This document shows, piece after piece, positions 1 through 60,011 of a stretch of 64,000 bases of DNA. The stretch's first letter is position 1; the number at the start of each line of letters is the position of its first letter. The DNA comes from Escherichia coli. Lineage in GTDB: Bacteria > Pseudomonadota > Gammaproteobacteria > Enterobacterales > Enterobacteriaceae. The notes under the pieces are model-generated. The model saw only the letters and a program-made list of their open reading frames with translations. It did not search any database and had not been told where the DNA came from. Position numbers and translations under genes: made by a program. The stretch is taken from NCBI RefSeq assembly GCF_013315695.1, contig NZ_CP054353.1; one strand, 5' to 3'.

Positions 1-86
1 GATATCATGATACTGCGGCGGGGCGCTAAAACGAAGGGAAGAAGCATTAGTGTAATTAATTAAAGCAAGATAATACGTATGTTTGA

Positions 87-374
87 TCAATTTTCGAGGC
101 GATAACCGGCCATAAAAAAGCGCAACGTAGAACAGGAATTATTCTCACGAAAGAAATCCATTACCATCTCTTTATCCAGTCCATAGCGGCGCGTCAGAAT
201 ACCCGCTTCCCAGGCGCTGAGCTGGCGATCTCCGGTCTTTTCGTACATCCGGTGCGAGTAGCCTAATACAAAACCGCGTTTATAATCGGCACAGTATTTT
301 GTCACATTAACCGCACTGTCGGCATGCGTTGCTTTTAATCCCGCCATTAAGCCTTTACCAAAATGGTTATTCAT
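87..374 (-). CDS. yghW: small conserved protein, 95 aa (YghW-like)
   Basis: 95-aa ORF at the position and length expected for yghW upstream of the yghX-gpr block; identity from memory. Confidence 0.55.
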
Positions 375-492
375 CGTTCACCTCATTCGATATATATTGT
401 CATATATAGCGATATTTTAGGCAAAGAACGACTTTTGCGCACGCTATTTTTTCATGCTTGTTTAAGACGTAATCCCGTAAGAGATAAACCTA

Positions 493-1380
493 TCAGGAGA
501 GATATTTATCGAACCATTTCAGTGTCCTTTGCCAGGCAAGATCGGCGGCAGATTTGTCATAACGGGGCGTGGAATCATTATGGAATCCGTGATTAACCCC
601 CGGATAGATATACGCCTCATAAACCTTATTATTGGCTTTCAACGCCGCCTCGTAAGCAGGCCAGCCCTCGTTGATTCGGGTGTCCAGTTCCGCGAAGTGG
701 AGTAGTAAAGGCGCTTCAATCTTCGCCACATCGGCAGTGGGTGCCTGGCGACCATAAAACGGCACCGCGCAGGCCAGTTCCGGATACGCGACAGCCGCCG
801 CGTTCGATACGCCACCGCCATAGCAAAATCCGGTAATACCCACTTTGCCTGTCGCTTGCGGATAGCGTTGCATAAACTCAATTGCGGCAAAGAAATCATT
901 CATCAGTTTGGTTGGATCAACCTGCTGTTGCAGCTCACGACCTTTATCATCATTTCCCGGATAACCTCCAACGGAACTTAAGCCGTCAGGTGCCAGGGCG
1001 ATATACCCCGCCTTCGCCACTCGCCGTGCCACATCTTCGATATACGGATTCAGTCCACGATTCTCATGCACCACTACCACGGCTGGCGTTTTGCCGCTCA
1101 TTTTTGCGGGTTTCACCAGATAACCCCGTACCTCGCCGTGACCATTTGGCGAAGGATACGTGATGTACTCAGCAACAATCTCCGGGTCGGTAAACTCTAC
1201 CTGAGTCGCCAGCGCATAATTTGGCTTGAGCAAATCAAACAACGCTAATGCCGTCATCCCGCCTACCGCATACTTCGCCGCAAGGTTGAGGAACTCACGT
1301 TTCGAGATTTTCCCGTGAGCGTAATAGTCGTAGTAATCCAACAACTCTTGTGGGAAATCTTTGGCGGTTAAACGCGGCAT
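493..1380 (-). CDS. yghX: dienelactone hydrolase-family protein, apparently intact (295 aa from the ATG at 1380)
   Basis: Hydrolase-like ORF; GAGGAG Shine-Dalgarno 7 nt upstream of the ATG at 1380; the track ORF (493..1425) starts further upstream. Confidence 0.7.
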   Translation of the reverse strand: MPRLTAKDFPQELLDYYDYYAHGKISKREFLNLAAKYAVGGMTALALFDLLKPNYALATQVEFTDPEIVAEYITYPSPNGHGEVRGYLVKPAKMSGKTPAVVVVHENRGLNPYIEDVARRVAKAGYIALAPDGLSSVGGYPGNDDKGRELQQQVDPTKLMNDFFAAIEFMQRYPQATGKVGITGFCYGGGVSNAAAVAYPELACAVPFYGRQAPTADVAKIEAPLLLHFAELDTRINEGWPAYEAALKANNKVYEAYIYPGVNHGFHNDSTPRYDKSAADLAWQRTLKWFDKYLS

Positions 1381-1536
1381 CGTTGCACTCCTCAACTGGT
1401 GTTTTTTTAAGCAAAGCATAAGCACGTGTTTTCGCCCAGTTTTTCGTCACTCTGTGAGCCAGACTACGGGATACGCGCTGGCGAATCGCTAAACTAGAAA
1501 CATTGTTTCGAAATTGAACGGTGGAAAGGAGAGGTC

Positions 1537-2577
1537 ATGGTCTGGTTAGCGAATCCCGAACGTTACGGGCAGATGCAGTACCGCTATTGCGGAAAAAGCG
1601 GTTTACGCCTGCCCGCGTTATCGCTCGGTTTATGGCACAATTTCGGTCACGTTAACGCGCTGGAATCACAGCGTGCGATCCTGCGTAAAGCGTTTGATTT
1701 GGGCATTACGCACTTTGATTTAGCCAACAATTACGGGCCACCTCCAGGAAGCGCAGAAGAGAACTTTGGTCGCCTGCTGCGGGAGGATTTTGCCGCTTAT
1801 CGCGATGAACTGATTATCTCTACCAAGGCTGGCTACGATATGTGGCCCGGCCCTTACGGCTCTGGCGGTTCACGTAAATACCTGCTCGCCAGCCTCGACC
1901 AAAGCCTGAAGCGGATGGGGCTTGAGTATGTCGATATCTTTTACTCTCATCGCGTCGATGAAAATACGCCGATGGAAGAAACCGCCTCTGCGCTGGCTCA
2001 TGCGGTACAAAGCGGTAAGGCGCTGTATGTCGGGATCTCCTCTTACTCGCCAGAGCGGACGCAAAAAATGGTCGAGTTACTGCGCGAGTGGAAAATTCCG
2101 CTGTTAATTCATCAACCTTCGTACAATTTACTGAACCGCTGGGTGGATAAAAGCGGCCTGCTGGATACCCTGCAAAATAACGGCGTGGGCTGCATTGCCT
2201 TTACTCCTCTGGCTCAGGGATTGCTGACCGGAAAATATCTCAACGGCATTCCGCAAGATTCACGGATGCATCGTGAAGGGAATAAAGTTCGTGGTCTGAC
2301 GCCGAAAATGCTCACCGAAGCCAACCTCAACAGCCTGCGGTTATTGAATGAAATGGCACAGCAGCGTGGACAATCAATGGCGCAAATGGCGTTAAGCTGG
2401 TTGCTGAAAGATGATCGCGTGACGTCGGTATTGATTGGTGCCAGCCGCGCGGAGCAACTTGAGGAGAACGTGCAGGCGCTGAATAATCTGACATTTAGCA
2501 CCGAGGAGCTGGCGCAGATTGATCAGCATATCGCCGATGGCGAGCTGAATCTGTGGCAGGCGTCTTCCGATAAATGA
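1537..2577 (+). CDS. gpr: aldo-keto reductase, L-glyceraldehyde 3-phosphate reductase
   Basis: 346 aa with AKR-family sequence; AGGAGAGG RBS before ATG. Confidence 0.85.
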   Translation: MVWLANPERYGQMQYRYCGKSGLRLPALSLGLWHNFGHVNALESQRAILRKAFDLGITHFDLANNYGPPPGSAEENFGRLLREDFAAYRDELIISTKAGYDMWPGPYGSGGSRKYLLASLDQSLKRMGLEYVDIFYSHRVDENTPMEETASALAHAVQSGKALYVGISSYSPERTQKMVELLREWKIPLLIHQPSYNLLNRWVDKSGLLDTLQNNGVGCIAFTPLAQGLLTGKYLNGIPQDSRMHREGNKVRGLTPKMLTEANLNSLRLLNEMAQQRGQSMAQMALSWLLKDDRVTSVLIGASRAEQLEENVQALNNLTFSTEELAQIDQHIADGELNLWQASSDK

Positions 2578-2616
2578 CCTGTTAATAACGGGCGCGAGAA
2601 CCGCGCCCGAATCAGA

Positions 2617-3180
<564 letters not shown>

Positions 3181-3301
3181 TCAACATATCCGTTAAACCT
3201 TTGTCGCATAAATCCGAGGTTTAGGGATCTTCCTGGTTCCCTTATCAACGCATCGAGAGCGTCTACCCTTAAAGGACGTTGAACCTGAAGGGAGAAAAAC
3301 G

Positions 3302-4186
3302 ATGTCTCATTTAAAAGACCCGACCACGCAGTATTACACTGGTGAATATCCCAAACAGAAACAACCGACGCCAGGCATCCAGGCGAAGATGACACCGGTA
3401 CCGGATTGCGGCGAGAAAACCTATGTTGGTAGCGGTCGCCTGAAAGATCGTAAAGCACTGGTGACAGGGGGCGATTCCGGAATCGGTCGCGCTGCCGCCA
3501 TTGCTTACGCGCGTGAAGGGGCTGACGTGGCGATTAGTTATCTTCCCGTAGAAGAACAAGACGCTCAGGATGTGAAAAAGATCATTGAAGAATGCGGACG
3601 CAAAGCCGTTCTGCTGCCAGGCGATTTAAGCGATGAGAAATTCGCCCGTTCGCTGGTTCACGAAGCGCACAAGGCGTTAGGCGGGCTGGATATTATGGCG
3701 CTGGTCGCCGGGAAACAGGTTGCCATTCCTGATATTGCAGACCTCACCAGCGAACAGTTTCAAAAGACCTTTGCCATTAACGTTTTCGCGCTGTTCTGGC
3801 TAACCCAGGAAGCGATACCCCTGCTACCGAAAGGTGCCAGTATCATCACCACTTCGTCAATCCAGGCATACCAGCCAAGCCCGCATTTACTGGACTATGC
3901 GGCTACGAAGGCGGCGATTCTGAACTACAGCCGAGGCCTGGCAAAACAGGTCGCGGAGAAAGGTATTCGGGTGAATATTGTCGCGCCAGGCCCGATCTGG
4001 ACAGCACTGCAAATTTCCGGCGGACAGACGCAGGATAAGATCCCGCAGTTTGGTCAGAAAACGCCGATGAAGCGTGCGGGGCAACCGGCGGAACTGGCCC
4101 CTGTATATGTTTATCTGGCAAGTCAGGAGTCGAGCTACGTCAGCGCAGAAGTGCACGGTGTGTGCGGCGGCGAGCATTTAGGTTAA
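3302..4186 (+). CDS. yghA: short-chain dehydrogenase/reductase, NADP-dependent
   Basis: 294 aa; [10 protein letters not shown] Rossmann motif. Confidence 0.85.
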
Positions 4187-4224
4187 AAAAATGCCCGGTT
4201 GTGAAAAGCAACCGGGCATCATTT

Positions 4225-4650
4225 TTATTTCGCTTTGGCGGTTTCTTCGCCGACCAGACCTATCTTCAGATAACCCGCCTGATGCAGCGTATCCATTACC
4301 TTCATCAACGTCTCGTAATCGACGGTTTTATCCGCACGGAAGAAGATGGTGGTGTCTTTCTTACCTTCAGTTAACGCATTCAGCGCCGTAACCATTGTTT
4401 CATCGGTGACCGGATCGTTACCGATAAACATCGAGTTGTCCGCCTTCACCGACAGATAAACCGGTTTTTCCGGGCGCGGCTGCGGCGTGCTGGTAGAAGC
4501 AGGCAAGTTCACCTTCACATCTACCGTCGCTAACGGTGCCGCCACCATAAAGATAATCAGCAGAACCAACATCACGTCGATAAACGGCGTCACGTTGATA
4601 TCATGCATTTCGCCATTATCGTCGAGGTTTTCGTTAAGATGCATTGCCAT
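4225..4650 (-). CDS. exbD: TonB-system energiser ExbD
   Basis: 141 aa, single N-terminal TM helix; immediately downstream of exbB. Confidence 0.9.
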   Translation of the reverse strand: MAMHLNENLDDNGEMHDINVTPFIDVMLVLLIIFMVAAPLATVDVKVNLPASTSTPQPRPEKPVYLSVKADNSMFIGNDPVTDETMVTALNALTEGKKDTTIFFRADKTVDYETLMKVMDTLHQAGYLKIGLVGEETAKAK

Positions 4651-4656
4651 CGGACA

Positions 4657-5391
4657 TTATCCTGCGCGTAATTTTTGTGCGACACGAACCGGATGCGCAG
4701 CGGCGCTGGCTTCCAGATCCAGGTCACGGCTTTGCAGCAACAATACCTGCGCTGCAACATCACCCAGCATCGCTTTAAAGCCGCCAATCTGGCGTGCAAA
4801 TACGTTATAGATAACGACCGCCGGAATCGCTGCCACGAGGCCGATTGCCGTTGCTAACAGAGCTTCTGCGATACCCGGCGCAACGACTGCCAGGTTAGTG
4901 GTCTGCGTTTGCGCGATACCAATAAAGCTGTTCATGATGCCCCAGACCGTACCAAACAGACCAACGAACGGCGAAATCGCGCCGATAGTCGCGAGATAGC
5001 CATTACCACGGCCCATTTGACGGCCCACAGCGGCGACCCGACGCTCCAGGCGGAAGCTGGTACGCTCTTTAATACCTTCGTTATCGTCGCTGCCTTCTGA
5101 CAGTTCCAGCTCATTCTGCGCTTCATTGAGCAAATGCAGGCTTAAGCTTTTGCTACCAAAATCAGCGGCGATATCGTTGGCCTGGTTTAAGGAACGCGCT
5201 TCAGCCAGCAGTTGCTGCTCGCGCTTAAGGCGACGCTTCTGATTGAAGAACTCTACGCTCTTACTGAAGAAGATTGCCCAGGTGACTACGGAGGCCAAAA
5301 TAAGCCCAATCATCACGCACTTAACGACAATATCGGCGTGCTGATACATACCCCAGACGGAAAGGTCCGTCTGCATTAAATTATTACCCAC
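4657..5391 (-). CDS. exbB: TonB-system energiser ExbB
   Basis: 244 aa, MotA/TolQ/ExbB-type. Confidence 0.9.
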   Translation of the reverse strand: MGNNLMQTDLSVWGMYQHADIVVKCVMIGLILASVVTWAIFFSKSVEFFNQKRRLKREQQLLAEARSLNQANDIAADFGSKSLSLHLLNEAQNELELSEGSDDNEGIKERTSFRLERRVAAVGRQMGRGNGYLATIGAISPFVGLFGTVWGIMNSFIGIAQTQTTNLAVVAPGIAEALLATAIGLVAAIPAVVIYNVFARQIGGFKAMLGDVAAQVLLLQSRDLDLEASAAAHPVRVAQKLRAG

Positions 5392-19454: not shown

Positions 19455-20264
19455 ATGAAAGCACTTCGTCCTCTGACGGCATCGCTTATGCTGTTAACCA
19501 GTTGTTTATTAATATCTAATACCACACTGGCAAAAATAACATTAAAACTGAGTCATAATCAGGATAAAAGCCATGCTGTCCATAAAGCATTAAGCTATTT
19601 AGCGGATAAAACCAAAGAGTATTCTAATGGTGAATTAGTTATTCGCATTTACCCAAATGCAACATTAGGTAATGAGCGTGAATCACTGGAATTAATGAAC
19701 TCCGGTGCATTACAGATGGTTAAGGTTAATGCCGCATCACTAGAATCATTTGCTCCAGATTACAGCCTTTTCAGTCTGCCGTTCTTATTCCGCGACCGTG
19801 ATCACTATTATCGTGTTCTGCAAAGTGATTTAGGTAAAAAAATACTTAATTCATCAGAAAGCAAAGGTTTTGTTGGTATTACGTACTATGACGGCGGTGC
19901 GAGAAGTTTTTATTCCAATAAACCGATTACAAAACCTGAAGATTTAGCGGGAATGAAAATCAGGGTTCAACAAAGCCCCAGCGCCATTGCAATGATGAAA
20001 GCACTCGGTGGTGTCGCTACCCCGATGGCGCAAGGCGAACTCTACACCGCACTTCAGCAAGGTGTGGTTGATGGCGGAGAGAACAATACCGTTGTCTATT
20101 CCGATATGCGTCACGCCGAAGTCGCAAAAGTCTATTCACGTGATGAACACACCATGGTACCTGATGTGTTAATTATCAGCACCGACGTGTTGAATAAACT
20201 TGGTGATAAAGAGCGCACGGCATTATTAAAAGCAGCCGGTGATGCTGCCAACTTACTGATTTAG
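19455..20264 (+). pseudogene. TRAP transporter solute-binding protein (DctP family), 3'-truncated by IS1
   Basis: Signal peptide plus DctP-like sequence for 261 codons; last 8 codons (GDAANLLI*) are encoded by the IS1 terminal repeat. Confidence 0.75.
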
Positions 20265-20292
20265 TGTATGATGGTGTTTTTGAGGTGCTCCA

Positions 20293-20568
20293 GTGGCTTC
20301 TGTTTCTATCAGCTGTCCCTCCTGTTCAGCTACTGACGGGGTGGTGCGTAACGGCAAAAGCACCGCCGGACATCAGCGCTATCTCTGCTCTCACTGCCGT
20401 AAAACATGGCAACTGCAGTTCACTTACACCGCTTCTCAACCCGGTACGCACCAGAAAATCATTGATATGGCCATGAATGGCGTTGGATGCCGGGCAACAG
20501 CCCGCATTATGGGCGTTGGCCTCAACACGATTTTACGTCACTTAAAAAACTCAGGCCGCAGTCGGTAA
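20293..20568 (+). CDS. insA: IS1 InsA
   Basis: 91 aa; zinc-finger/HTH protein typical of IS1. Confidence 0.9.
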
Positions 20569-20990
20569 CCTCGCGCATACAGCCGGGCAGTGACGTCATC
20601 GTCTGCGCGGAAATGGACGAACAGTGGGGCTATGTCGGGGCTAAATCGCGCCAGCGCTGGCTGTTTTACGCGTATGACAGGCTCCGGAAGACGGTTGTTG
20701 CGCACGTATTCGGTGAACGCACTATGGCGACGCTGGGGCGTCTTATGAGCCTGCTGTCACCCTTTGACGTGGTGATATGGATGACGGATGGCTGGCCGCT
20801 GTATGAATCCCGCCTGAAGGGAAAGCTGCACGTAATCAGCAAGCGATATACGCAGCGAATTGAGCGGCATAACCTGAATCTGAGGCAGCACCTGGCACGG
20901 CTGGGACGGAAGTCGCTGTCGTTCTCAAAATCGGTGGAGCTGCATGACAAAGTCATCGGGCATTATCTGAACATAAAACACTATCAATAA
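20487..20990 (+). CDS. insB: IS1 InsB frame (transposase made by an InsAB' frameshift)
   Basis: 167-aa ORF overlapping insA in the -1 frame. Confidence 0.9.
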
Positions 20991-21004
20991 GTTGGAGTCA
21001 TTAC

Positions 21005-21046
21005 CGATTATGTCTACAGCAAAGAGTTGTATATCAAGGCACATTG
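21005..21046 (+). pseudogene. ygiS: orphaned 3' end of ygiS (DYVYSKELYIKAH*), displaced by the IS1-bounded inversion
   Basis: First 9 bp gattatgtc are the reverse complement of gacataatc at 26938..26946, which abuts the truncated ygiS; reading on yields ten codons and a stop, restoring the expected 535-aa length. Confidence 0.6.
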
Positions 21047-21184
21047 ATGTCTTTATCGCCGTCGGAGCACGTCCGGCGGCGCTATTCACGCTGATCTCCT
21101 GTGACTCGACGCGGCAGATAATGTAGTATCTCCGGCAATATTGCCCCTTTGAAGGCTGGCGAATAAGTTGAGGAATCAGAATTA

Positions 21185-23443
21185 ATGAGCGATATGGCAG
21201 AGCGCCTTGCGCTACATGAATTTACGGAAAACGCCTACTTAAACTACTCCATGTACGTGATCATGGACCGTGCGTTGCCGTTTATTGGTGATGGTCTGAA
21301 ACCCGTTCAGCGGCGCATTGTGTATGCGATGTCTGAACTGGGTCTGAATGCCAGTGCCAAATTTAAAAAATCGGCCCGTACCGTCGGTGACGTACTGGGT
21401 AAATACCATCCGCACGGCGATAGTGCCTGTTATGAAGCGATGGTCCTGATGGCGCAGCCGTTCTCTTACCGTTATCCGCTGGTTGATGGTCAGGGGAACT
21501 GGGGCGCGCCGGACGATCCGAAATCGTTCGCGGCAATGCGTTACACCGAATCCCGGTTATCGAAATATTCTGAGTTGCTATTAAGCGAGCTTGGACAGGG
21601 GACGGCTGACTGGGTGCCAAACTTCGACGGCACCTTACAGGAGCCGAAAATGCTGCCAGCCCGCCTGCCGAACATTTTGCTTAACGGCACCACCGGTATT
21701 GCCGTCGGCATGGCGACCGATATTCCACCGCATAACCTGCGTGAAGTGGCTCAGGCGGCAATCGCATTAATCGACCAGCCGAAAACCACGCTCGATCAGC
21801 TGCTGGATATCGTGCAGGGGCCGGATTATCCGACTGAAGCGGAAATTATCACTTCGCGCGCCGAGATTCGTAAAATCTACGAGAACGGACGTGGTTCAGT
21901 GCGTATGCGCGCGGTTTGGAAGAAAGAAGATGGCGCGGTGGTTATTAGCGCATTGCCGCATCAGGTTTCAGGTGCGCGCGTACTGGAGCAAATTGCTGCG
22001 CAAATGCGCAACAAAAAGCTGCCGATGGTTGACGATCTGCGCGATGAATCTGACCACGAGAACCCGACCCGTCTGGTGATTGTGCCGCGTTCCAACCGCG
22101 TGGATATGGATCAGGTGATGAACCACCTCTTTGCTACCACCGATCTGGAAAAGAGCTATCGCATTAACCTCAATATGATCGGTCTGGATGGTCGTCCGGC
22201 GGTGAAAAACCTGCTGGAAATCCTCTCCGAATGGCTGGTGTTCCGCCGCGATACCGTGCGCCGCCGACTGAATTATCGTCTGGAGAAAGTCCTCAAGCGC
22301 CTGCATATCCTCGAAGGTTTGCTGGTGGCGTTTCTCAATATCGACGAAGTGATTGAGATCATTCGTAATGAAGATGAACCGAAACCGGCGCTGATGTCGC
22401 GGTTTGGCCTTACTGAAACCCAGGCGGAAGCGATCCTCGAACTGAAACTGCGTCATCTTGCCAAACTGGAAGAGATGAAGATTCGCGGTGAGCAGAGTGA
22501 GCTGGAAAAAGAGCGCGACCAGTTGCAGGGCATTTTGGCTTCCGAGCGTAAAATGAATAACCTGCTGAAGAAAGAACTGCAGGCAGACGCGCAAGCCTAC
22601 GGTGACGAACGTCGTTCGCCGTTGCAGGAACGCGAAGAAGCGAAAGCGATGAGCGAGCACGACATGCTGCCGTCTGAACCTGTCACCATTGTGCTGTCGC
22701 AGATGGGCTGGGTACGCAGCGCTAAAGGCCATGATATCGACGCGCCGGGCCTGAATTATAAAGCGGGCGATAGCTTCAAAGCGGCGGTGAAAGGTAAGAG
22801 CAACCAACCGGTAGTGTTTGTTGATTCCACCGGTCGTAGCTATGCCATCGACCCGATTACGCTGCCGTCGGCGCGTGGTCAGGGCGAACCGCTCACCGGC
22901 AAATTAACGTTGCCGCCTGGAGCGACCGTTGACCATATGCTGATGGAAAGCGACGATCAGAAACTGCTGATGGCTTCCGATGCGGGTTACGGTTTCGTCT
23001 GCACCTTTAACGATTTGGTGGCGCGTAACCGTGCAGGTAAGGCTTTGATCACCTTACCGGAAAATGCCCATGTTATGCCGCCGGTGGTGATTGAAGATGC
23101 TTCCGATATGCTGCTGGCAATCACTCAGGCAGGCCGTATGTTGATGTTCCCGGTAAGCGATCTGCCGCAGCTGTCGAAGGGCAAAGGCAACAAGATTATC
23201 AACATTCCATCGGCAGAAGCCGCGCGTGGAGAAGATGGTCTGGCGCAACTGTACGTTCTGCCGCCGCAAAGCACGCTGACCATTCATGTTGGGAAACGCA
23301 AAATTAAACTGCGTCCGGAAGAGCTACAGAAAGTCACTGGCGAACGTGGACGCCGCGGTACGTTGATGCGCGGTTTGCAGCGTATCGATCGTGTTGAGAT
23401 CGACTCTCCTCGCCGTGCCAGCAGCGGTGATAGCGAAGAGTAA
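21185..23443 (+). CDS. parC: DNA topoisomerase IV subunit A
   Basis: 752 aa; GyrA/ParC family. Confidence 0.95.
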
Positions 23444-23676
23444 TATGCCGGGGAGGGCGCTGTTTCCTCCCGCTTGCAAGGAACGCCGGATGAAACGTTA
23501 AGTCGTCATCCGGCAGCGTATTCTACCCCCGGAAACGATAAAAATTCCCTTGAAACCGTTGTTTATTCATGCGTTGCGATTAACAATACGCTTTTCCAGA
23601 GAGCGGCTTTTAACAATGCCCTAACCTGATTTCAGGTGACGTACAATGCCAGTCTCTCAGACCTTCAGAGGGTGTT

Positions 23677-24414
23677 ATGCTATATATCTTTCGTCTTATT
23701 ATTACCGTGATTTACAGCATCTTAGTCTGTGTATTCGGCTCCATTTACTGCCTTTTCAGCCCGCGTAACCCGAAACATGTGGCCACCTTTGGGCATATGT
23801 TTGGTCGTCTTGCACCGCTGTTCGGCCTGAAAGTTGAGTGCCGCAAACCTGCGGATGCTGAAAGCTACGGCAATGCTATCTATATCGCTAACCACCAGAA
23901 CAACTATGACATGGTCACAGCATCGAACATTGTGCAACCGCCGACGGTGACGGTAGGTAAAAAGAGCTTGCTGTGGATCCCCTTCTTCGGGCAGTTGTAC
24001 TGGTTAACCGGCAACTTATTGATCGACAGAAACAATCGCACTAAAGCTCACGGCACTATTGCGGAAGTCGTGAATCACTTCAAAAAACGCCGTATTTCCA
24101 TCTGGATGTTCCCGGAAGGAACCCGCAGCCGTGGTCGCGGCCTGCTGCCGTTCAAGACCGGGGCATTTCACGCGGCAATTGCGGCGGGCGTCCCGATTAT
24201 TCCCGTGTGCGTCTCTACAACTTCGAATAAGATTAATCTTAATCGACTGCACAACGGTCTGGTGATTGTCGAAATGCTGCCGCCAATTGACGTCAGTCAG
24301 TATGGCAAAGATCAGGTTCGTGAGCTGGCTGCCCATTGTCGTTCGATAATGGAACAAAAAATCGCCGAGCTCGATAAAGAAGTCGCAGAGCGCGAAGCCG
24401 CCGGAAAAGTTTAA
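23677..24414 (+). CDS. plsC: 1-acyl-sn-glycerol-3-phosphate acyltransferase
   Basis: 245 aa; HX4D acyltransferase motif (NHQNNYD). Confidence 0.9.
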   Translation: MLYIFRLIITVIYSILVCVFGSIYCLFSPRNPKHVATFGHMFGRLAPLFGLKVECRKPADAESYGNAIYIANHQNNYDMVTASNIVQPPTVTVGKKSLLWIPFFGQLYWLTGNLLIDRNNRTKAHGTIAEVVNHFKKRRISIWMFPEGTRSRGRGLLPFKTGAFHAAIAAGVPIIPVCVSTTSNKINLNRLHNGLVIVEMLPPIDVSQYGKDQVRELAAHCRSIMEQKIAELDKEVAEREAAGKV

Positions 24415-24488
24415 GTCGGCAATCTGTATTTTTGCGGGGAACACTTTCCTGCACGGTATTACTTTAGCCAGTTTTACATGGAGCAAAT

Positions 24489-25901
24489 ATGTCACTCAGT
24501 CGGCGTCAGTTCATTCAGGCATCGGGGATTGCACTTTGTGCAGGCGCTGTTCCCCTGAAGGCCAGCGCAGCCGGGCAACAGCAACCGCTACCCGTTCCGC
24601 CGCTGCTTGAATCTCGCCGTGGGCAACCGCTGTTTATGACTGTACAACGTGCGCACTGGTCATTTACGCCAGGGACACGCGCGTCGGTTTGGGGAATCAA
24701 TGGTCGTTACCTGGGGCCGACTATCCGCGTCTGGAAGGGCGACGATGTTAAGCTTATTTACAGCAACCGCCTGACAGAAAATGTCTCAATGACGGTGGCC
24801 GGGCTACAGGTACCAGGCCCGCTGATGGGCGGTCCGGCACGGATGATGTCGCCAAACGCTGACTGGGCACCCGTACTGCCCATTCGCCAGAACGCAGCTA
24901 CTCTGTGGTATCACGCCAATACTCCCAACCGCACGGCTCAGCAGGTCTATAACGGCCTTGCCGGAATGTGGCTGGTGGAAGATGAAGTCAGCAAGTCGCT
25001 GCCTATCCCCAACCATTATGGTGTGGATGATTTTCCGGTCATTATCCAGGATAAACGGCTGGATAACTTTGGTACGCCAGAATACAACGAACCGGGAAGC
25101 GGCGGCTTTGTTGGTGATACGCTGCTGGTTAACGGTGTGCAAAGCCCGTACGTTGAAGTCTCGCGTGGCTGGGTGCGCTTGCGACTGCTGAACGCGTCGA
25201 ACTCTCGTCGCTATCAACTACAGATGAGCGATGGTCGCCCGTTACATGTGATTTCTGGCGATCAGGGATTCCTGCCTGCTCCTGTATCGGTGAAGCAACT
25301 TTCGCTGGCACCGGGCGAGCGCCGCGAGATTCTGGTGGATATGAGCAACGGTGATGAAGTGTCGATCACCTGTGGTGAAGCGGCGAGCATTGTTGATCGT
25401 ATTCGCGGCTTCTTTGAGCCATCCAGTATTCTGGTGTCTACGCTGGTGCTAACGCTGCGCCCAACCGGCCTTCTGCCGCTGGTCACAGACAGTCTTCCGA
25501 TGCGCTTGCTGCCAACTGAAATCATGGCCGGTTCGCCGATTCGTAGTCGCGATATCAGTCTGGGTGATGACCCGGGTATTAATGGACAACTGTGGGACGT
25601 CAACCGTATTGATGTCACCGCGCAGCAAGGAACGTGGGAACGCTGGACGGTACGCGCGGACGAGCCGCAAGCGTTCCATATTGAAGGCGTGATGTTCCAG
25701 ATCCGTAACGTGAATGGCGCGATGCCGTTCCCGGAAGACAGAGGCTGGAAAGATACCGTTTGGGTTGACGGACAAGTGGAGCTGCTGGTTTATTTCGGTC
25801 AGCCTTCCTGGGCGCACTTCCCGTTCTACTTCAACAGTCAGACGCTGGAAATGGCGGACCGTGGCTCGATTGGGCAACTGTTGGTCAATCCGGTACCGTA
25901 A
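24489..25901 (+). CDS. ftsP: cell-division multicopper-oxidase-like protein (SufI)
   Basis: 470 aa; Tat signal peptide (SRRQFI). Confidence 0.9.
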   Translation: MSLSRRQFIQASGIALCAGAVPLKASAAGQQQPLPVPPLLESRRGQPLFMTVQRAHWSFTPGTRASVWGINGRYLGPTIRVWKGDDVKLIYSNRLTENVSMTVAGLQVPGPLMGGPARMMSPNADWAPVLPIRQNAATLWYHANTPNRTAQQVYNGLAGMWLVEDEVSKSLPIPNHYGVDDFPVIIQDKRLDNFGTPEYNEPGSGGFVGDTLLVNGVQSPYVEVSRGWVRLRLLNASNSRRYQLQMSDGRPLHVISGDQGFLPAPVSVKQLSLAPGERREILVDMSNGDEVSITCGEAASIVDRIRGFFEPSSILVSTLVLTLRPTGLLPLVTDSLPMRLLPTEIMAGSPIRSRDISLGDDPGINGQLWDVNRIDVTAQQGTWERWTVRADEPQAFHIEGVMFQIRNVNGAMPFPEDRGWKDTVWVDGQVELLVYFGQPSWAHFPFYFNSQTLEMADRGSIGQLLVNPVP

Positions 25902-25911
25902 TGGACCAATT

Positions 25912-25940
25912 CAATGCCCCACAGAGTGGTGGGGCATTGA
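25912..25940. terminator. hairpin after ftsP, possibly bidirectional with the dctM remnant
   Basis: Perfect stem aatgcccca...tggggcatt. Confidence 0.4.
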
Positions 25941-25971
25941 AAATTACTCAGTATGCAGTCTTCACTGTGTA

Positions 25972-26170
25972 TCAGGTCGAAAATAATCCTGGCAGCATCA
26001 GACTAAGCTGCGGGAAATAACAAATAATTGCCATTACTACAAACAATGCCAGAAACATCGGCAGTAATGGTTTTATTGCCCTGTCGATACTGACCTTACC
26101 AATGCTGCACCCCACAAACAGAATGGTGCCGACAGGTGGTGTGCAAAGGCCAATGGTTAAGTTGAAAACG
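25972..26170 (-). pseudogene. C-terminal remnant of a TRAP transporter large permease (DctM-like), cut by IS1
   Basis: Minus-strand translation from the IS1 junction: VFNLTIGLCTPPVGTILFVGCSIGKVSIDRAIKPLLPMFLALFVVMAIICYFPQLSLMLPGLFST*; no start codon. Confidence 0.6.
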
Positions 26171-26184
26171 GTAATGACTCCAAC

Positions 26185-26688
26185 TTATTGATAGTGTTTT
26201 ATGTTCAGATAATGCCCGATGACTTTGTCATGCAGCTCCACCGATTTTGAGAACGACAGCGACTTCCGTCCCAGCCGTGCCAGGTGCTGCCTCAGATTCA
26301 GGTTATGCCGCTCAATTCGCTGCGTATATCGCTTGCTGATTACGTGCAGCTTTCCCTTCAGGCGGGATTCATACAGCGGCCAGCCATCCGTCATCCATAT
26401 CACCACGTCAAAGGGTGACAGCAGGCTCATAAGACGCCCCAGCGTCGCCATAGTGCGTTCACCGAATACGTGCGCAACAACCGTCTTCCGGAGCCTGTCA
26501 TACGCGTAAAACAGCCAGCGCTGGCGCGATTTAGCCCCGACATAGCCCCACTGTTCGTCCATTTCCGCGCAGACGATGACGTCACTGCCCGGCTGTATGC
26601 GCGAGGTTACCGACTGCGGCCTGAGTTTTTTAAGTGACGTAAAATCGTGTTGAGGCCAACGCCCATAATGCGGGCTGTTGCCCGGCAT
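26185..26688 (-). CDS. insB: IS1 InsB frame
   Basis: Protein identical to the copy-1 InsB. Confidence 0.9.
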
Positions 26689-26882
26689 CCAACGCCATTC
26701 ATGGCCATATCAATGATTTTCTGGTGCGTACCGGGTTGAGAAGCGGTGTAAGTGAACTGCAGTTGCCATGTTTTACGGCAGTGAGAGCAGAGATAGCGCT
26801 GATGTCCGGCGGTGCTTTTGCCGTTACGCACCACCCCGTCAGTAGCTGAACAGGAGGGACAGCTGATAGAAACAGAAGCCAC
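26607..26882 (-). CDS. insA: IS1 InsA
   Basis: Protein identical to the copy-1 InsA. Confidence 0.9.
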
Positions 26883-26910
26883 TGGAGCACCTCAAAAACA
26901 CCATCATACA

Positions 26911-28512
26911 CTAAATCAGTAAGTTGGCAGCATCACCGACATAATCCTGGGGATTATGCAGCGGAAAACCGCCAACGTAGGGTTTAAGCAGTTTGATTAA
27001 CGGCTGATAATAGACAGGAATGAGCGGTGCCTGCTGGTTGATGATCACTTCTGCCTGCTGATACAACGCATTACGCTTTGTTGCATCAGCCGTTTGTGCC
27101 GCCTGGTTTAGTAAGGCGTCATACTGCGCGTTTTTCCAGTGGCCGACATTTTCCTCGCTATCGCTCTTAAGCGTGTTCAGAAAGGTGGAGGCATCATTGT
27201 ACGTCGCATCCCACGACTGCCGAGACAACATGAAATCACCGGCTCGTCGGGCATCAAGATAAGTTTTCCACTCCATTGTGCGCAGCGTCACCTGTGCACC
27301 CAGCCATTTTTTCCATTCGGAAGACAACGCTATCGCGGTCTTTTCATGCAGATCGTACTTGTTGTAGAACAGCTCAAAGCGAAGCGGATGAGAGGCGTCG
27401 TATCCCGCCTGTTTCAACAAGGCTTTTGCCATCGCGACGCGCTCACTCAGCGGCTTTTGCAGTTCATCGAACGTCGTCGCGCTAAAGCCTTTTACCTCTG
27501 GCGGCGTCAGCGTAGTTGCGGGCGTTCTCAACCCCAGTACCTTTTGCGCAATAAGCTGTCGATCAACCGTAAGATATAGCGCCCGACGCACCCGCACATC
27601 GTTAAATGGCGGTTTCTCAAGGTTGAAGTTGTAATATTCGCTGTTCAGACGCGGAATAATTCGTAGCTCGCCAGGCAGTGATTTTTCAATGGCGGGAATT
27701 TGCTGCGCCGGAACCCAGGTGAGATCGACCTCTCCCGCGCGATAGCGGTTATAGCCGGTGACCGAATTATCCAGCGCCAGATACTCAACCTGTTGCAATA
27801 CTGTATGTTGCGCATCGCGGTACTTTGGATTTTTGCGTGCAGTAATCTTTTCGTTAACTACCCACTGATCAAGCACAAAGGCACCGTTGTAAACCATGTT
27901 CTCTGGCTTACTCCAGCTATCGCCATGTTTAGCGATGACATGATGAGGAACCGGGAACAGCGTCGGCCAGGCGAGCATCGTCGTGAACCAAGGAACTGGC
28001 TGCTCAAGCGTAACTTCAAGAGTACGATCATCCATCGCTTTGACACCCAGCGATGTAACATCTGCTTTACCCGCAACAATAGCCGCGGCATTGTTAATGT
28101 GCGCCTGTGCCAGATAGCCAGCAAAAGGGCTTGCCGTTTTCGGGTCAACCGCACGTTGCCAGCCGAGGACAAAATCCTCTGCTGTCAGAGGCTGACCGTC
28201 TGACCACTGCAAACCGCTACGCAGATGGAAAATATAGCGCTTGCCGCCGTCCAGTATCTCCCAGCGTTCAGCCTGAGCGGGCTGCACCTGGCCTTCACCG
28301 TCCATCCATACCAGACCTTCAAACAGATCCAGCACAATCTGCGCGGCAGTATTCTCCTCTACCTTTTGCGGGTCGAGCGTGCCTGGGTCGCTATGATTGT
28401 TGTAACGAAAAACTTGTTGCGGGGCGAGCGGTGTGTTGGCGGGAACGTCAGCAGCGTAGAGAGGAGCCGCACTTACCAGGCTGACCAGCCATAATAAATT
28501 TCGCGTATACAT
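26911..28512 (-). CDS. ygiS: periplasmic oligopeptide-type ABC substrate-binding protein with an IS1-encoded C-terminal tail
   Basis: 533 aa; signal peptide; SBP family 5; last 8 aa GDAANLLI come from the IS1 end (native part 26938..28512). Confidence 0.75.
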   Translation of the reverse strand: MYTRNLLWLVSLVSAAPLYAADVPANTPLAPQQVFRYNNHSDPGTLDPQKVEENTAAQIVLDLFEGLVWMDGEGQVQPAQAERWEILDGGKRYIFHLRSGLQWSDGQPLTAEDFVLGWQRAVDPKTASPFAGYLAQAHINNAAAIVAGKADVTSLGVKAMDDRTLEVTLEQPVPWFTTMLAWPTLFPVPHHVIAKHGDSWSKPENMVYNGAFVLDQWVVNEKITARKNPKYRDAQHTVLQQVEYLALDNSVTGYNRYRAGEVDLTWVPAQQIPAIEKSLPGELRIIPRLNSEYYNFNLEKPPFNDVRVRRALYLTVDRQLIAQKVLGLRTPATTLTPPEVKGFSATTFDELQKPLSERVAMAKALLKQAGYDASHPLRFELFYNKYDLHEKTAIALSSEWKKWLGAQVTLRTMEWKTYLDARRAGDFMLSRQSWDATYNDASTFLNTLKSDSEENVGHWKNAQYDALLNQAAQTADATKRNALYQQAEVIINQQAPLIPVYYQPLIKLLKPYVGGFPLHNPQDYVGDAANLLI

Positions 28513-55338: not shown

Positions 55339-55343
55339 AGCAA

Positions 55344-55372
55344 CACAAAAACGGGCCAGACGGCCCGTAATA
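55344..55372. terminator. bidirectional terminator between convergent ubiK and glgS
   Basis: Hairpin acgggcc-aga-cggcccgt. Confidence 0.45.
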
Positions 55373-55573
55373 TCAGTGTTCTAATTCAAGTTCTCTGGTT
55401 TGCATCATTTGTTGGCAATACCAGGCATAACGTGCGCAAAACCAGGTTCTATGTTCTTCATCCATGTTACCAGTAACGGCCAGAATATCGACCGGGCGAC
55501 CTTCTGCGTGCATTCTGGCAAAACTACGCGCCAGGAAATCGAAATTATTTAAAGAATTAAGACTATGATCCAT
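55373..55573 (-). CDS. glgS: surface-composition regulator GlgS
   Basis: 66 aa from [13 protein letters not shown]...; GGAGG RBS. Confidence 0.85.
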
Positions 55574-55841
55574 AAGCACATCCTCCGGTTATCGCATACC
55601 TTTTAAGGCCATATGCTTTTTCTGATTTCAGTATTCACCAATCAGTGTAGTGCCTTTAAACATAACGTGCGTAAATATATTGTCCCCGATCACACTTTTT
55701 AGTGAAAAATAAAAAACCATATTAAAAGACTTTCTCTTCCAGAACTTCTCTAACATGTGTTATTATTAACAAAGATAAATGTAAGCAAGGAAACTATCAT
55801 AAAGTAAATATTGCGTCACTAAATGGACATTGGAGTGACAT

Positions 55842-56471
55842 ATGATTTTATTCGCCGACTATAACACCCCTTATCTTTTCGCTATTTCCTTTGTACTGTT
55901 GATCGGCCTTTTAGAAATTTTTGCGCTTATCTGCGGTCACATGCTCTCCGGTGCACTTGATGCACATCTTGACCATTATGATTCCATAACCACAGGTCAT
56001 ATTAGCCAGGCACTTCATTATCTCAATATCGGAAGATTGCCAGCTCTCGTCGTTCTTTGCTTACTGGCTGGTTTTTTTGGTCTTATTGGCATCCTGTTGC
56101 AGCATACCTGCATCATGGTCTGGCAATCACCACTCTCGAACCTGTTTGTGGTTCCTGTCAGTTTACTGTTTACGATTATTGCGGTGCATTATACCGGTAA
56201 AATAGTTGCGCCCTGGATTCCACGCGATCATAGCTCAGCTATTACAGAAGAAGAATATATTGGTAGCATGGCGTTAATTACCGGTCATCAAGCCACTTCA
56301 GGTAATCCCTACGAAGGAAAACTCACCGATCAATTTGGCCAAATACATTATTTACTACTGGAGCCTGAAGAAGGAAAAATTTTCACTAAAGGAGACAAAG
56401 TGTTAATTATTTGCCGACTTTCTGCAACTCGATATTTGGCGGAAAACAATCCCTGGCCCCAAATATTGTAA
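55842..56471 (+). CDS. yqiJ: NfeD-like inner membrane protein
   Basis: 209 aa; N-terminal TM helices; precedes the flotillin-like yqiK. Confidence 0.8.
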
Positions 56472-56497
56472 TTTATTAATCAAAAGGAAATTTAATA

Positions 56498-58159
56498 ATG
56501 GATGATATTGTTAATTCTGTGCCCTCCTGGATGTTTACCGCGATTATTGCCGTATGCATTCTGTTTATTATTGGAATTATTTTCGCCAGGCTCTATCGTC
56601 GCGCTTCGGCAGAGCAAGCTTTTGTTCGTACTGGTTTAGGTGGGCAAAAAGTGGTAATGAGCGGTGGCGCAATCGTGATGCCGATCTTTCATGAAATAAT
56701 CCCCATCAATATGAATACTCTGAAGCTGGAAGTCAGCCGCTCAACCATTGATAGCCTGATTACGAAAGATCGTATGCGCGTCGATGTCGTTGTCGCTTTC
56801 TTTGTGCGGGTAAAACCGTCAGTGGAAGGTATTGCCACCGCCGCCCAGACGCTGGGGCAACGCACCCTGTCGCCTGAAGACTTACGTATGTTGGTTGAAG
56901 ATAAATTTGTCGATGCCCTCCGTGCAACAGCTGCACAAATGACCATGCATGAGTTACAGGATACCCGCGAGAACTTCGTGCAGGGCGTACAAAATACCGT
57001 TGCTGAAGATCTGTCGAAAAACGGCCTGGAACTGGAAAGCGTTTCACTTACCAACTTTAACCAGACGTCGAAAGAACATTTCAATCCTAACAACGCCTTT
57101 GACGCCGAAGGTTTAACCAAGCTGACGCAGGAGACGGAGCGCCGTCGTCGCGAACGTAACGAAGTTGAACAGGATGTAGAAGTTGCGGTGCGTGAGAAAA
57201 ACCGTGATGCGCTTTCGCGGAAGCTGGAGATTGAACAGCAAGAAGCGTTTATGACGCTTGAGCAGGAGCAGCAGGTTAAAACCCGTACCGCTGAGCAGAA
57301 TGCGAAAATTGCGGCTTTTGAAGCTGAACGTCGTCGTGAAGCAGAGCAGACGCGAATTCTGGCTGAACGACAGATTCAGGAAACAGAAATCGACCGCGAA
57401 CAGGCCGTCCGCTCAAGAAAAGTTGAAGCTGAACGTGAAGTTCGCATTAAAGAGATCGAACAACAGCAGGTCACCGAAATCGCCAACCAGACGAAATCGA
57501 TCGCTATTGCCGCCAAATCGGAACAGCAGTCACAAGCGGAAGCGCGTGCCAACCTTGCACTTGCAGAAGCGGTAAGCGCCCAGCAAAACGTAGAAACCAC
57601 TCGCCAGACCGCAGAAGCCGATCGTGCTAAACAAGTTGCCCTAATCGCTGCCGCGCAGGATGCAGAAACCAAAGCGGTTGAACTGACCGTGCGGGCGAAA
57701 GCAGAGAAAGAAGCCGCAGAGATGCAGGCGGCGGCGATCGTTGAGTTAGCCGAAGCAACACGCAAAAAAGGCCTGGCGGAAGCAGAAGCGCAACGTGCGC
57801 TGAACGACGCTATCAACGTACTTTCTGACGAGCAAACCAGCCTTAAATTCAAACTGGCCTTGTTGCAGGCGCTACCTGCGGTAATTGAGAAATCCGTGGA
57901 ACCAATGAAGTCCATTGACGGTATCAAGATTATTCAGGTCGATGGATTAAACCGAGGTGGTGCTGCGGGGGATGCGGCATCAGGCAGCGTTAGTGGCGGA
58001 AACCTGGCAGAACAGGCATTGTCTGCCGCCCTTTCTTACCGCACACAGGCACCGCTGATTGACTCCTTGCTCAATGAAATTGGCGTTTCAGGCGGCTCAC
58101 TGGCGGCATTGACTTCCCCCTTAACCTCAACAACTCCCGTCGAAGAAAAAACAGAGTAA
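56498..58159 (+). CDS. yqiK: SPFH/band-7 flotillin-like protein
   Basis: 553 aa; N-terminal TM helix, SPFH domain, long charged coiled-coil (EA-rich). Confidence 0.85.
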   Translation: MDDIVNSVPSWMFTAIIAVCILFIIGIIFARLYRRASAEQAFVRTGLGGQKVVMSGGAIVMPIFHEIIPINMNTLKLEVSRSTIDSLITKDRMRVDVVVAFFVRVKPSVEGIATAAQTLGQRTLSPEDLRMLVEDKFVDALRATAAQMTMHELQDTRENFVQGVQNTVAEDLSKNGLELESVSLTNFNQTSKEHFNPNNAFDAEGLTKLTQETERRRRERNEVEQDVEVAVREKNRDALSRKLEIEQQEAFMTLEQEQQVKTRTAEQNAKIAAFEAERRREAEQTRILAERQIQETEIDREQAVRSRKVEAEREVRIKEIEQQQVTEIANQTKSIAIAAKSEQQSQAEARANLALAEAVSAQQNVETTRQTAEADRAKQVALIAAAQDAETKAVELTVRAKAEKEAAEMQAAAIVELAEATRKKGLAEAEAQRALNDAINVLSDEQTSLKFKLALLQALPAVIEKSVEPMKSIDGIKIIQVDGLNRGGAAGDAASGSVSGGNLAEQALSAALSYRTQAPLIDSLLNEIGVSGGSLAALTSPLTSTTPVEEKTE

Positions 58160-58175
58160 ACCCTCTTCTATGAAT

Positions 58176-58208
58176 AATCCCTGGCCCAAAAAGCCGGGGA
58201 TTTTTTAT
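58176..58208 (+). terminator. yqiK rho-independent terminator
   Basis: Hairpin aatccctggc...gccggggatt followed by a T-run. Confidence 0.5.
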
Positions 58209-58339
58209 ATCTGCGTTCCGCTAAAAAGTACAAATGTTCAGGTTGTTACAGCGTTTTTCGAGCCGACTCGGGGAAGAGAAAACTGCATAAGAGAAAGCAT
58301 TGCGCGGGGTCTGGCGCTCATCAACAATCGGGGAGTCAG

Positions 58340-58480
58340 CAAGGGGCTGAAACGGGAAAGCCCCTCCCGAGGAAGGGGCCTTATAGAAGGAAAGGGTTAT
58401 GATGAAGTTCGTCATCATACTGGTTGTGTTGTTACTGTTAAGTTTCCCGACTTACTAACAACTCATCAGAGGGGGGAGAA
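58340..58480 (-). ncRNA. sib: Sib-type antisense sRNA antitoxin (boundaries approximate)
   Basis: Inferred from the ibs ORF and the GC-rich hairpins on the opposite strand; no promoter or terminator mapped. Confidence 0.35.
58399..58458 (+). CDS. ibs: Ibs-type type I toxin peptide, 19 aa (MMKFVIILVVLLLLSFPTY)
   Basis: atgatgaag... ORF with a GGAAAGG RBS; hydrophobic peptide ending in FPTY; below the size cutoff of the ORF track. Confidence 0.6.
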   Translation: MMKFVIILVVLLLLSFPTY

Positions 58481-58577
58481 ATCCTCCCTTACCCTTGTTC
58501 CTTTACTTTAGGTTGAAAAAACAACAGCGTCAATAGGTCTATCCGGCACAACGCGAGAACTGTGAAGCGCTTTCCGG

Positions 58578-60011
58578 TTAGCCTTTTTTATCCTGTTGGA
58601 TCTTCTTGATAATGTTAGTGGTCGAGCAACCGTCTTCAAAGTTGAGCACCAGCACTTCGCCACCATTGGCCCAGACTTCTTTACTCCCGGCAATCTCTTC
58701 TGGTTTATAATCGCCGCCTTTCACCAGCAGGTCTGGCAGGATCCCGGCGATCAAGCGCTGCGGCGTGTCTTCTTCAAACGACACCACCCAGTCGACCGCT
58801 TCCAGTGCGCCCAGCACAATCATACGCTGTTCGAGCGGGTTAACGGGGCGGGAATCCCCTTTCAGCCGTTTGGTGGAGGCATCGCTGTTGACGGCGACAA
58901 TCAAACGGTCACCCAGTTTACGGGCATTTGCCAGATAAGAGACGTGTCCGGCGTGCAGGATGTCAAAGACGCCATTGGTCATCACCACTTTTTCACCGCG
59001 TTTACGCGCTGCCGCTACAGCAAGCTTCAGTTCCTCTTCGGTCATCACGCCAAAGCCGGTATCTGCACGTCCACGTACTGCATTTTCCAGCTCGATCGGC
59101 GAAACCGTGGATGTCCCCAGTTTGCCGACCACCACACCAGCCGCCGCATTGGCAAAGAAGCAGGCTTCTTCCAGCGAATTACCCGCTGCCAGCGTTGCCG
59201 CCAGGACACCAATCACCGTGTCGCCCGCACCGGTAACGTCATACACTTCCTGCGCCTGGGTTGGCATATGCAGCGGCGCTTTACCCGGTTGCAGCAGCGA
59301 CATACCCTGTTCGGAACGGGTCACTAACAGAGCCGAGAGTTCGTAATCGGCAATCAGTTTCATGCCGCGCTCAACAATCTCTTCTTCGGTTTTACATTTA
59401 CCGACAACAGCTTCAAATTCCGAGAGATTCGGCGTTAACAGCGTAGCGCCGCGGTAGCGCTCAAAATCGGTACCTTTTGGATCAATCAGCACCGGAACAC
59501 CCGCTTTACGCGCCAGTTGGATCATCTGCTGTACGCTTGCCAGCGCACCTTTGGCGTAGTCAGAAAGCACCAGCGCGCCAATCGAACTCAGCGCCTGATT
59601 AATCCGTTCGTGCAGCGGCTGCGGATCAACACCTTCGAAACCTTCTTCAAAATCCAGACGAATCAGCTGTTGGTTGCGGGAAAGCACCCGTAATTTGGTG
59701 ATGGTCGGATGCGTCGGTACAGAAACGAAGTCGCATTTGACGTTGACGTCGGCCAGAGATTTACTCAGCGCGCGCGCCGCATCGTCAATGCCCGTTAACC
59801 CGACCAGGCGTGCATTAGCACCGAGAGAAGCGATATTCATCGCCACGTTAGCCGCGCCGCCCGGACGTTCTTCGATGGTATTTACTTTAACCACGGGCAC
59901 CGGCGCTTCCGGCGAGATACGGCTGGTGGGACCGTACCAGTAACGATCCAGCATCACATCACCAACCACCATCACTCCTGCACGTTCAAACTCTGGCAGC
60001 GTTACTTTCAT
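58578..60011 (-). CDS. hldE: bifunctional heptose 7-phosphate kinase / heptose 1-phosphate adenylyltransferase
   Basis: 477 aa. Confidence 0.95.

Follow-up and report, generated by a model that had tools for sequence, protein, structure and literature searches.

The gene pair yqiJ–yqiK raises two questions: what a flotillin-type protein and its small membrane partner may do together in Escherichia coli, and whether their expression is silenced. Both genes were found in a 64,000-nucleotide stretch of DNA (hereafter, the window), which is part of an E. coli chromosome. The preliminary description of this DNA had named the pair at 55842–58159; its identity and coordinates were borne out by RefSeq, which annotates both genes in an E. 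coli record, isolate AF3 (NZ_OZ547117.1), that is 100% identical over 55300–58700. According to the ORF list, yqiJ occupies positions 55842–56471 (plus strand, 209 aa) and yqiK positions 56498–58159 (plus strand, 553 aa); the boundaries of both ORFs coincide with those annotated in AF3, where the products are named “OB-fold-containing protein” and “flotillin family protein”, respectively. The first 50 kb of the window differed from NZ_OZ547117.1 by 7 substitutions and 0 indels. The pair is already known, named, and annotated and represents an ordinary E. coli operon. We consider it very likely that these genes are the yqiJK operon of the E. coli chromosome, for which an SPFH-dome mechanism may be proposed by analogy.

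The genes glgS (minus strand), ubiK, and ribB with its FMN riboswitch were located upstream of yqiJ, while a single Sib/IbsE module followed by hldE and glnE was found downstream of yqiK. A Shine–Dalgarno sequence, GGAG (55832–55835, plus strand), precedes yqiJ, and the ribosome-binding site of yqiK, AAGGA (56484–56488, plus strand), lies inside the 26-bp spacer between the two genes (56472–56497, plus strand). Scanning of this spacer revealed neither a terminator nor a promoter-like site, which is consistent with the presence of yqiJ and yqiK on one transcript; yqiJK is given as an operon in PMC3946193 and PMC2636767. A terminator-like G+C-rich hairpin with a T-run was predicted 17 nt past the yqiK stop codon (58176–58202, plus strand). 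It has a 10-pair stem with 6 GC pairs and the tail TTTTATATCT (consensus match only), and the yqiJK transcript probably ends there. Antisense ORFs in yqiK, for example, one of 183 aa on the minus strand (57376–57927), were taken as by-products of the Ala/Glu-rich codon composition.

YqiK is a flotillin-type SPFH protein with matches to the Pfam families Band_7 and Flot. The SPFH/Band 7 domain (PF01145, E-value 1.9e-18, 67.6 bits against a cut-off of 23.6) covers aa 39–192 (nt 56612–57073, plus strand), and the flotillin domain (PF15975, E-value 3.4e-40, 137.4 bits against a cut-off of 27, model positions 1–124 of 124) covers aa 406–530 (nt 57713–58087, plus strand). Both scores are far above the gathering values, so the earlier designation of the protein as SPFH/flotillin-like was well founded. 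A transmembrane anchor was predicted by hydropathy at the N-terminus (about aa 12–32, nt 56531–56593, plus strand); the hydrophobic segment, found within aa 4–36 (Kyte–Doolittle value 2.98), is followed by a positive-inside RLYRR motif. These features fit a single N-terminal anchor in N-out/C-in orientation with the bulk of the protein predicted to be cytoplasmic, a topology also stated in PMC10434171.

Between the two domains, a coiled coil was predicted at about aa 203–421 (nt 57104–57760, plus strand). Residues 200–420 consist of 19.5% Ala, 18.1% Glu, 11% Gln, and 10% Arg, and only two Pro and two Gly occur among residues 200–470. AlphaFold predicted one unbroken helix at 203–421 with pLDDT mostly 70–88. 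Composition and predicted helix together agree with the long EA-rich coiled coil noted previously. The AlphaFold model was built from a 12-sequence alignment, which was shallow, the top 120 homologues being near-identical Escherichia/Salmonella sequences; its mean pLDDT was 56, the SPFH domain was left unresolved, and the long helix alone was confident. Natural in-frame indels in units of 5, 9, 13, 16, and 26 residues occur in the YqiK coiled coil between strains, and natural variants of YqiK range in length from 527 to 575 aa. Tandem Repeats Finder detected no repeats in 55500–58700, and the coiled-coil indels of other strains do not appear as a repeat array in the yqiK allele of the window.

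Searches against all PDB sequences, with phmmer for YqiK and YqiJ and with an hmmsearch profile for YqiK, gave nothing significant (1jm1, E-value 0.99; 1win, E-value 0.38; 8eld, E-value 0.21). The NCBIfam FloT equivalog model NF058507 scored 88.7 bits against a cut-off of 700, with a match spanning aa 15–490. By this score, YqiK is a flotillin-family homologue and not a FloT equivalog; since it falls far under the equivalog cut-off, transfer of function from Bacillus subtilis FloT is not licensed.

The partner protein, YqiJ, is a three-helix membrane protein with a cytoplasmic C-terminal OB-fold of the NfeD type and belongs to the short, protease-less type of NfeD-like inner-membrane proteins. 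Hydropathy revealed three hydrophobic segments (about aa 8–30, 68–94, and 100–119), matching predicted helices at 6–30, 68–94, and 100–125, and the C-terminal OB-fold covers about aa 140–202. Pfam matches were limited to YqiJ_N (PF21001) and YqiJ_OB (PF07290); no peptidase domain was found by Pfam, i.e., the ClpP-like protease of long NfeDs is absent. NCBIfam assigned no family to YqiJ, and phmmer against all PDB sequences gave nothing significant.

The Pfam NfeD model (PF01957) matched neither the full-length YqiJ nor its C-terminal 76 residues at E ≤ 10; the relation to NfeD was therefore shown by structure instead, through structural matches with 8–14% sequence identity. Matches to GPCRs, ranked between these structural matches, reflect the helical bundle only. 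Reported NMR shifts are available for the YqiJ C-terminus, and yqiJ/yqiK has been described as one operon of the SPFH2/NfeD type (Hinderhofer et al. 2009, PMC2636767). YqiJ is thus NfeD-like by its fold, its architecture (membrane helices plus OB barrel), and its operon context, and it stands outside the Pfam NfeD sequence family. The description of YqiJ as NfeD-like holds in the former respects and does not extend to the Pfam NfeD model.

An NfeD-like gene followed by a flotillin-like one had been regarded as the usual arrangement, and the same order was indeed found in other genera. An SPFH gene stands next to yqiJ on the same strand in the window, in K-12, in Entomohabitans, and in Ca. Erwinia. 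Entomohabitans shows the same synteny (ribB-ubiK-yqiJ-yqiK-hldE-glnE) with a yqiJ–yqiK spacer of 21 bp, while in Ca. Erwinia impunctatus a yqiJ-type gene is followed after 17 bp by yqiK, which is broken into three pieces. The pairing is already present in the literature: FloT/FloA systems have their E. coli counterparts, according to Wessel et al. 2023 (PMC10434171), in the pairs yqiJ-yqiK and qmcA-ybbJ, and the two-gene operon of a flotillin and a YqiJ/YuaF-type gene is widely distributed in bacteria and archaea (PMC11237479). Bacterial flotillin–NfeD pairs are, in general, widespread.

Regarding regulation, a 268-bp AT-rich region upstream of the pair had been taken to suggest tight or silenced control. 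This region is the divergent glgS/yqiJ spacer (55574–55841), which is bounded by the true start of glgS at 55573 (minus strand), contains the promoters of both genes, and is 97.8% identical to that of K-12. Its length stands as described, and its GC content is 0.332 against 0.506 for the window, a value as low as this being found in 1.4% of all 268-bp windows. Among all annotated intergenic spacers of the window that reach 100 bp (23 in number, with a mean GC of 0.426), it ranks only fourth lowest. The spacer is AT-rich, yet unremarkable for a double promoter region. An AT-rich spacer as a conserved trait of the pair was also rejected, because the corresponding spacer of Entomohabitans is 91 bp long with 63% GC. 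The AT-rich region is therefore a feature of the glgS junction in Escherichia rather than of the gene pair itself.

A sigma-70 promoter of yqiJK, TTTAAA-N15-TATATT, was predicted at 55655–55681 (plus strand) from the motif given in PMC3946193. A pattern search located a single copy of this motif in the window, against an expectation of 0 from shuffled sequences; the promoter would imply a transcription start near 55688 and a 5′ UTR of about 150 nt. A consensus promoter scan of the spacer gave no sigma-70-like site on the plus strand, and its overall counts were no higher than in shuffles; the scanner used spacings of 16–18 nt, and the 15-nt spacing of the published yqiJK promoter is outside this range. 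The entry “glgS < HNS > yqiJ (yqiJK)” is listed in a genomic SELEX table for K-12 (Shimada et al. 2014, PMC3946193); it is a single SELEX-derived row, and the H-NS mark stands on 36% of the divergent spacers in that table. Data on derepression of yqiJK in hns strains were not found in the literature.

Chromosomally encoded YqiK-GFP was undetectable (PMC10434171), and YqiK-3xFLAG was marginally detected in inner membranes, being too scarce to place in a gradient of detergent-resistant membranes (PMC6788730). Transcription of yqiJK is reported to start in this AT-rich, reportedly H-NS-bound spacer and to be very low in laboratory culture. Silencing of yqiJK is plausible on the strength of this literature, i.e., the published H-NS mark and the barely detectable YqiK, and not on that of the AT content, which does not discriminate.

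A model of the YqiJK assembly can be inferred from SPFH assemblies of solved structure, namely, the QmcA–YbbJ cage, HflK/C, the eukaryotic flotillins, and FloA–NfeD of Staphylococcus aureus. YqiK would oligomerise via its SPFH ring and a wall of long coiled coils; the resulting dome would sit on the inner membrane, on its cytoplasmic side, and enclose a patch of that membrane. The YqiJ helices would insert in or at this patch, and the OB domain of YqiJ would serve to bind the YqiK oligomer and keep it stable. Client membrane proteins would then be sequestered or stabilised by the assembly under some stress. No phenotype in growth, biofilm formation, or stress could be assigned to yqiK when this gene or all four genes for SPFH proteins were deleted (PMC10434171; PMC2636767), and YqiK could not be demonstrated in detergent-resistant membranes (PMC6788730). 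The very low expression of yqiJK in the laboratory explains why a clear phenotype is not known. A more elaborate version, which we regard as quite unlikely, can be drawn by analogy: YqiJK might be an H-NS-silenced flotillin cage, induced in the host or upon energy depletion and holding damaged membrane proteins in the manner of S. aureus FloA–NfeD, with the YqiK indels making the cage differ in height or size from strain to strain.

Instead of a raft scaffold or a holdase, the pair could also be a membrane-stress or membrane-repair module in the sphere of PspA/ESCRT-III, in which the flotillin and YqiJ would recruit PspA, or cooperate with it, where cardiolipin-rich membrane is damaged. Genes for Band-7 plus flotillin proteins with YqiJ/YuaF-type three-TM partners do occur inside PspA operons, and the widely distributed two-gene operons of bacteria and archaea appear as abbreviated forms (PMC11237479). 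However, no psp gene is adjacent to yqiJK in the window, where the neighbours are glgS, ubiK, ribB, hldE, and glnE, and general stresses reportedly do not induce YqiK (PMC2636767, citing unpublished data). We rate this explanation as unlikely.

The very low native expression and the lack of a knockout phenotype might rather indicate a cryptic, decaying relic, silenced, dispensable, and no longer functional in E. coli. Databases commonly contain truncated products of yqiJ (e.g., one of 120 aa on 573 contigs from strains of O145:H28 type); in Salmonella Enteritidis, a frameshift in yqiJ was without effect, and in Ca. Erwinia impunctatus, whose genome is reduced, yqiK is in fragments. The comparative data, however, point the other way. 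The stretch 55300–58700 was found by megablast in 5425 of the 5426 complete E. coli genomes, and the yqiJ–yqiK pair was covered by at least 80% in 5389 of them (99%). The allele of the window is a rarer one (only 10 of 5454 records at least 99% identical).

In comparison with K-12, yqiJ has 2 amino-acid and 11 synonymous-codon differences (dN/dS 0.053), and yqiK has 6 amino-acid and 82 synonymous differences (dN/dS 0.029). Judged by these ratios of 0.03 to 0.05, yqiJK is under strong purifying selection. The SPFH domain of YqiK is invariant from E. coli to Salmonella, and in Entomohabitans, YqiK is 87% and YqiJ only about 51% identical. Selection, retention, and conservation together form a strong argument against a relic despite the missing knockout phenotypes, and we consider this explanation very unlikely. 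Purifying selection and near-absent laboratory expression point instead to a condition-specific function of the yqiJK operon. As a finding, the re-identification of a near-universal E. coli operon matters little.

The toxin locus mentioned previously does lie directly downstream of the pair. The Sib antitoxin RNA (58384–58533, minus strand) was identified by Rfam as SIB_RNA (RF00113) with 142.2 bits against a gathering score of 56 over the full length 1–147, and it overlaps the annotated ibsE toxin CDS of 19 codons (58399–58458, plus strand). Physical adjacency (224 nt from the yqiK stop to Sib) and the action of Ibs peptides at the inner membrane (bioRxiv 10.1101/2025.05.26.656083) could suggest that yqiJK is functionally coupled to Sib/Ibs, for instance, by buffering the membrane-active IbsE peptide. 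The terminator-like hairpin, however, sits between yqiK and Sib, and the Sib copy number varies, with yqiJK unchanged: one module is present in the window and two, sibD/ibsD and sibE/ibsE, downstream of yqiK in K-12. Sib-type repeats also occur elsewhere, with a median of 3 places per genome when Sib was included in the query and 1 for yqiJK alone. No SIB RNA was found in the yqiJK loci compared from Entomohabitans and Ca. Erwinia. In the loci compared, the adjacency is thus specific to the Escherichia/Salmonella lineage and gives no ground for proposing a functional link between yqiJK and Sib. The linkage was rejected since the pair occurs without SIB RNA in these two loci from other genera, and we regard such coupling as extremely improbable.

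Finally, there is a negligible chance that yqiJK is an anti-phage defence system or mobile-element cargo, for although yqiJ fragments occur on about 40 plasmids, these are IS26-truncated 5′ pieces of the chromosome (yqi fimbrial genes-glgS-yqiJ′) and not intact operons, the pair holds a fixed syntenic core position, and the defence idea was rejected because PADLOC models gave no match.

Among known systems, the yqiJK locus of the window is like YqiJ (b3050)/YqiK (b3051) of E. coli K-12, having the same genes (209 and 553 aa) and the same 268-bp and 26-bp spacers, with amino acid identities of 99.0% for YqiJ and 98.9% for YqiK. The loci differ in the yqiK DNA, which is 94.2% identical (dS 0.26) and has a variable patch at aa 494–499, in the single Sib/Ibs copy of the window against the two of K-12, and in the genes beyond glgS, which are ubiK in the window and the fimbrial genes yqiH-yqiI in K-12. 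The YuaF (NfeD)/FloT (YuaG) pair of B. subtilis, of the SPFH2 subgroup, differs from YqiJK: the YqiJ OB domain shares about 10% identity with its counterpart, and the FloT phenotypes in sporulation, biofilm formation, and competence have no reported yqiK counterpart.

Eukaryotic flotillin-1/-2 (reggie) have the same architecture of SPFH domain, EA-rich coiled coil, and Flot domain and match the same Pfam models as YqiK, while YqiK and flotillin-2 (1win, E-value 0.38) are too dissimilar in sequence to be matched directly. Membrane attachment of eukaryotic flotillins relies on a hairpin and on acylation, not on a transmembrane helix. The NfeD partner is absent in eukaryotes (PMC11222466).

FloA/NfeD of S. 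aureus resembles YqiJK in being an operon of a flotillin and an NfeD protein. FloA and YqiK are members of different SPFH subgroups. In S. aureus, NfeD binds and stabilises the flotillin oligomer, which serves unfolded proteins as a holdase that needs no ATP (PMC11222466). No other mechanism of a flotillin and NfeD pair has experimental support. This one comes from a Gram-positive bacterium with clear stress and infection phenotypes and would apply to YqiJK by analogy.

QmcA (YbbK)/YbbJ is a paralogous pair of SPFH and NfeD proteins in the same organism, also facing the cytoplasm, with the gene order reversed (qmcA upstream of ybbJ). As an SPFH protein of the stomatin type, QmcA lacks the long coiled coil and the Flot domain of flotillins. 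Unlike YqiK, QmcA is reportedly readily detected at its native level, in foci and in detergent-resistant membranes (PMC10434171, PMC6788730). The solved structure of the QmcA–YbbJ complex, as cited in PMC13086221, is a cage built from 26 heterodimers (Tan et al. 2024). QmcA–YbbJ is the best structural analogue for the probable assembly of YqiJK.

We analyzed the synonymous divergence of the yqiJ-yqiK locus and the neighboring genes from their K-12 counterparts. It formed a mosaic, with dS at 0.25 in glgS, 0.08 in yqiJ, 0.26 in yqiK, and 0.12 in hldE. Over its final 300 bp, yqiK had just 82–85% identity to K-12, and the yqiJK allele of the window was matched at an identity of at least 99% by only 10 of 5454 records. 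Taken together, these sequence comparisons suggest that diverged alleles have recombined at the yqiJK locus. The two genes also differed in base composition, yqiJ being markedly AT-richer (G+C content of 0.42, 0.39 at third codon positions) than yqiK (0.51). A second trough of low G+C content, about 0.35, covered the 3′ end of yqiJ and the yqiJ–yqiK junction (within 55842..56600).

Natural YqiK alleles ranged in size from 527 to 575 aa among the homologues compared; the window allele had the K-12 length. The homologous proteins P0131, P0140, P0166, P0185, P0207, P0231, P0211, and P0214 were set against the YqiK of the window, and every length difference among the compared alleles was an in-frame indel within the Ala/Glu-rich coiled coil. 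These indels included the gain of 13 aa (AERRREAEQTRIL) or the loss of the same segment, the addition of 5 or 10 aa as AEKEA units, deletions of 9 and 26 aa, and, in Salmonella, an insertion of 16 aa. The sizes of the indel units were not multiples of the heptad.

Truncated YqiJ products are often found in databases. Disruptions of yqiJ were collected from YqiJ homologues (P0119, P0120, P0030, and others) and from two publications (PMC4999529; PMC6137255). One example was a 120-aa form of YqiJ, encoded on 573 contigs whose names refer to E. coli O145:H28. Previously reported cases comprise the parallel emergence, in small-colony variants adapted to macrophages, of an IS5 insertion in yqiJ at nt 562, and a 13-bp frameshift in yqiJ of a Salmonella Enteritidis isolate (PMC4999529; PMC6137255). 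Disruption appears to be commoner in yqiJ than in yqiK.

About 40 E. coli plasmids, mostly of pig and poultry origin, carried a captured chromosomal fragment. It contained genes for a fimbrial usher, a chaperone, and a fimbrial protein, as well as glgS and a 5′ portion of yqiJ that broke off after either 260 or 572 bp. A single plasmid, pMB18312_3 (1..5018), was inspected, and there IS26 directly adjoined the truncated yqiJ.

Elsewhere in the window, a perfect 773-nt inverted repeat within 20237..26938 was formed by two IS1 copies (20237–21009 and 26166–26938), separated by 5156 bp with parC-plsC-ftsP. Parts of a TRAP transporter operon, a substrate-binding gene (19455..20264) and a permease fragment (25972..26181), were located on both sides of the IS1-flanked segment. 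The arrangement has the appearance of an inversion, mediated by IS1, of a stretch holding essential genes.

Upstream of yqiJ, glgS was abutted by ubiK (end at 55338; intervening region 55339..55373), with a hairpin common to both genes between them (55351..55368). In K-12 (1..1240 of its yqiJK locus), the fimbrial genes yqiH-yqiI lie immediately past glgS instead; therefore, by gene order compared with K-12, the yqi fimbrial cluster is absent from the glgS junction of the window. Downstream, alignments in some of the complete E. coli genomes with the yqiJK region included about 375 extra bases, which is consistent with variation of the Sib/Ibs copy number among E. coli genomes. The yqiK–hldE interval of the window (58160..58577) contained a single copy of this type I toxin–antitoxin module (SIB RNA, 58384..58533; ibsE, 58399..58458), whereas the same interval of K-12 has two, sibD/ibsD and sibE/ibsE.
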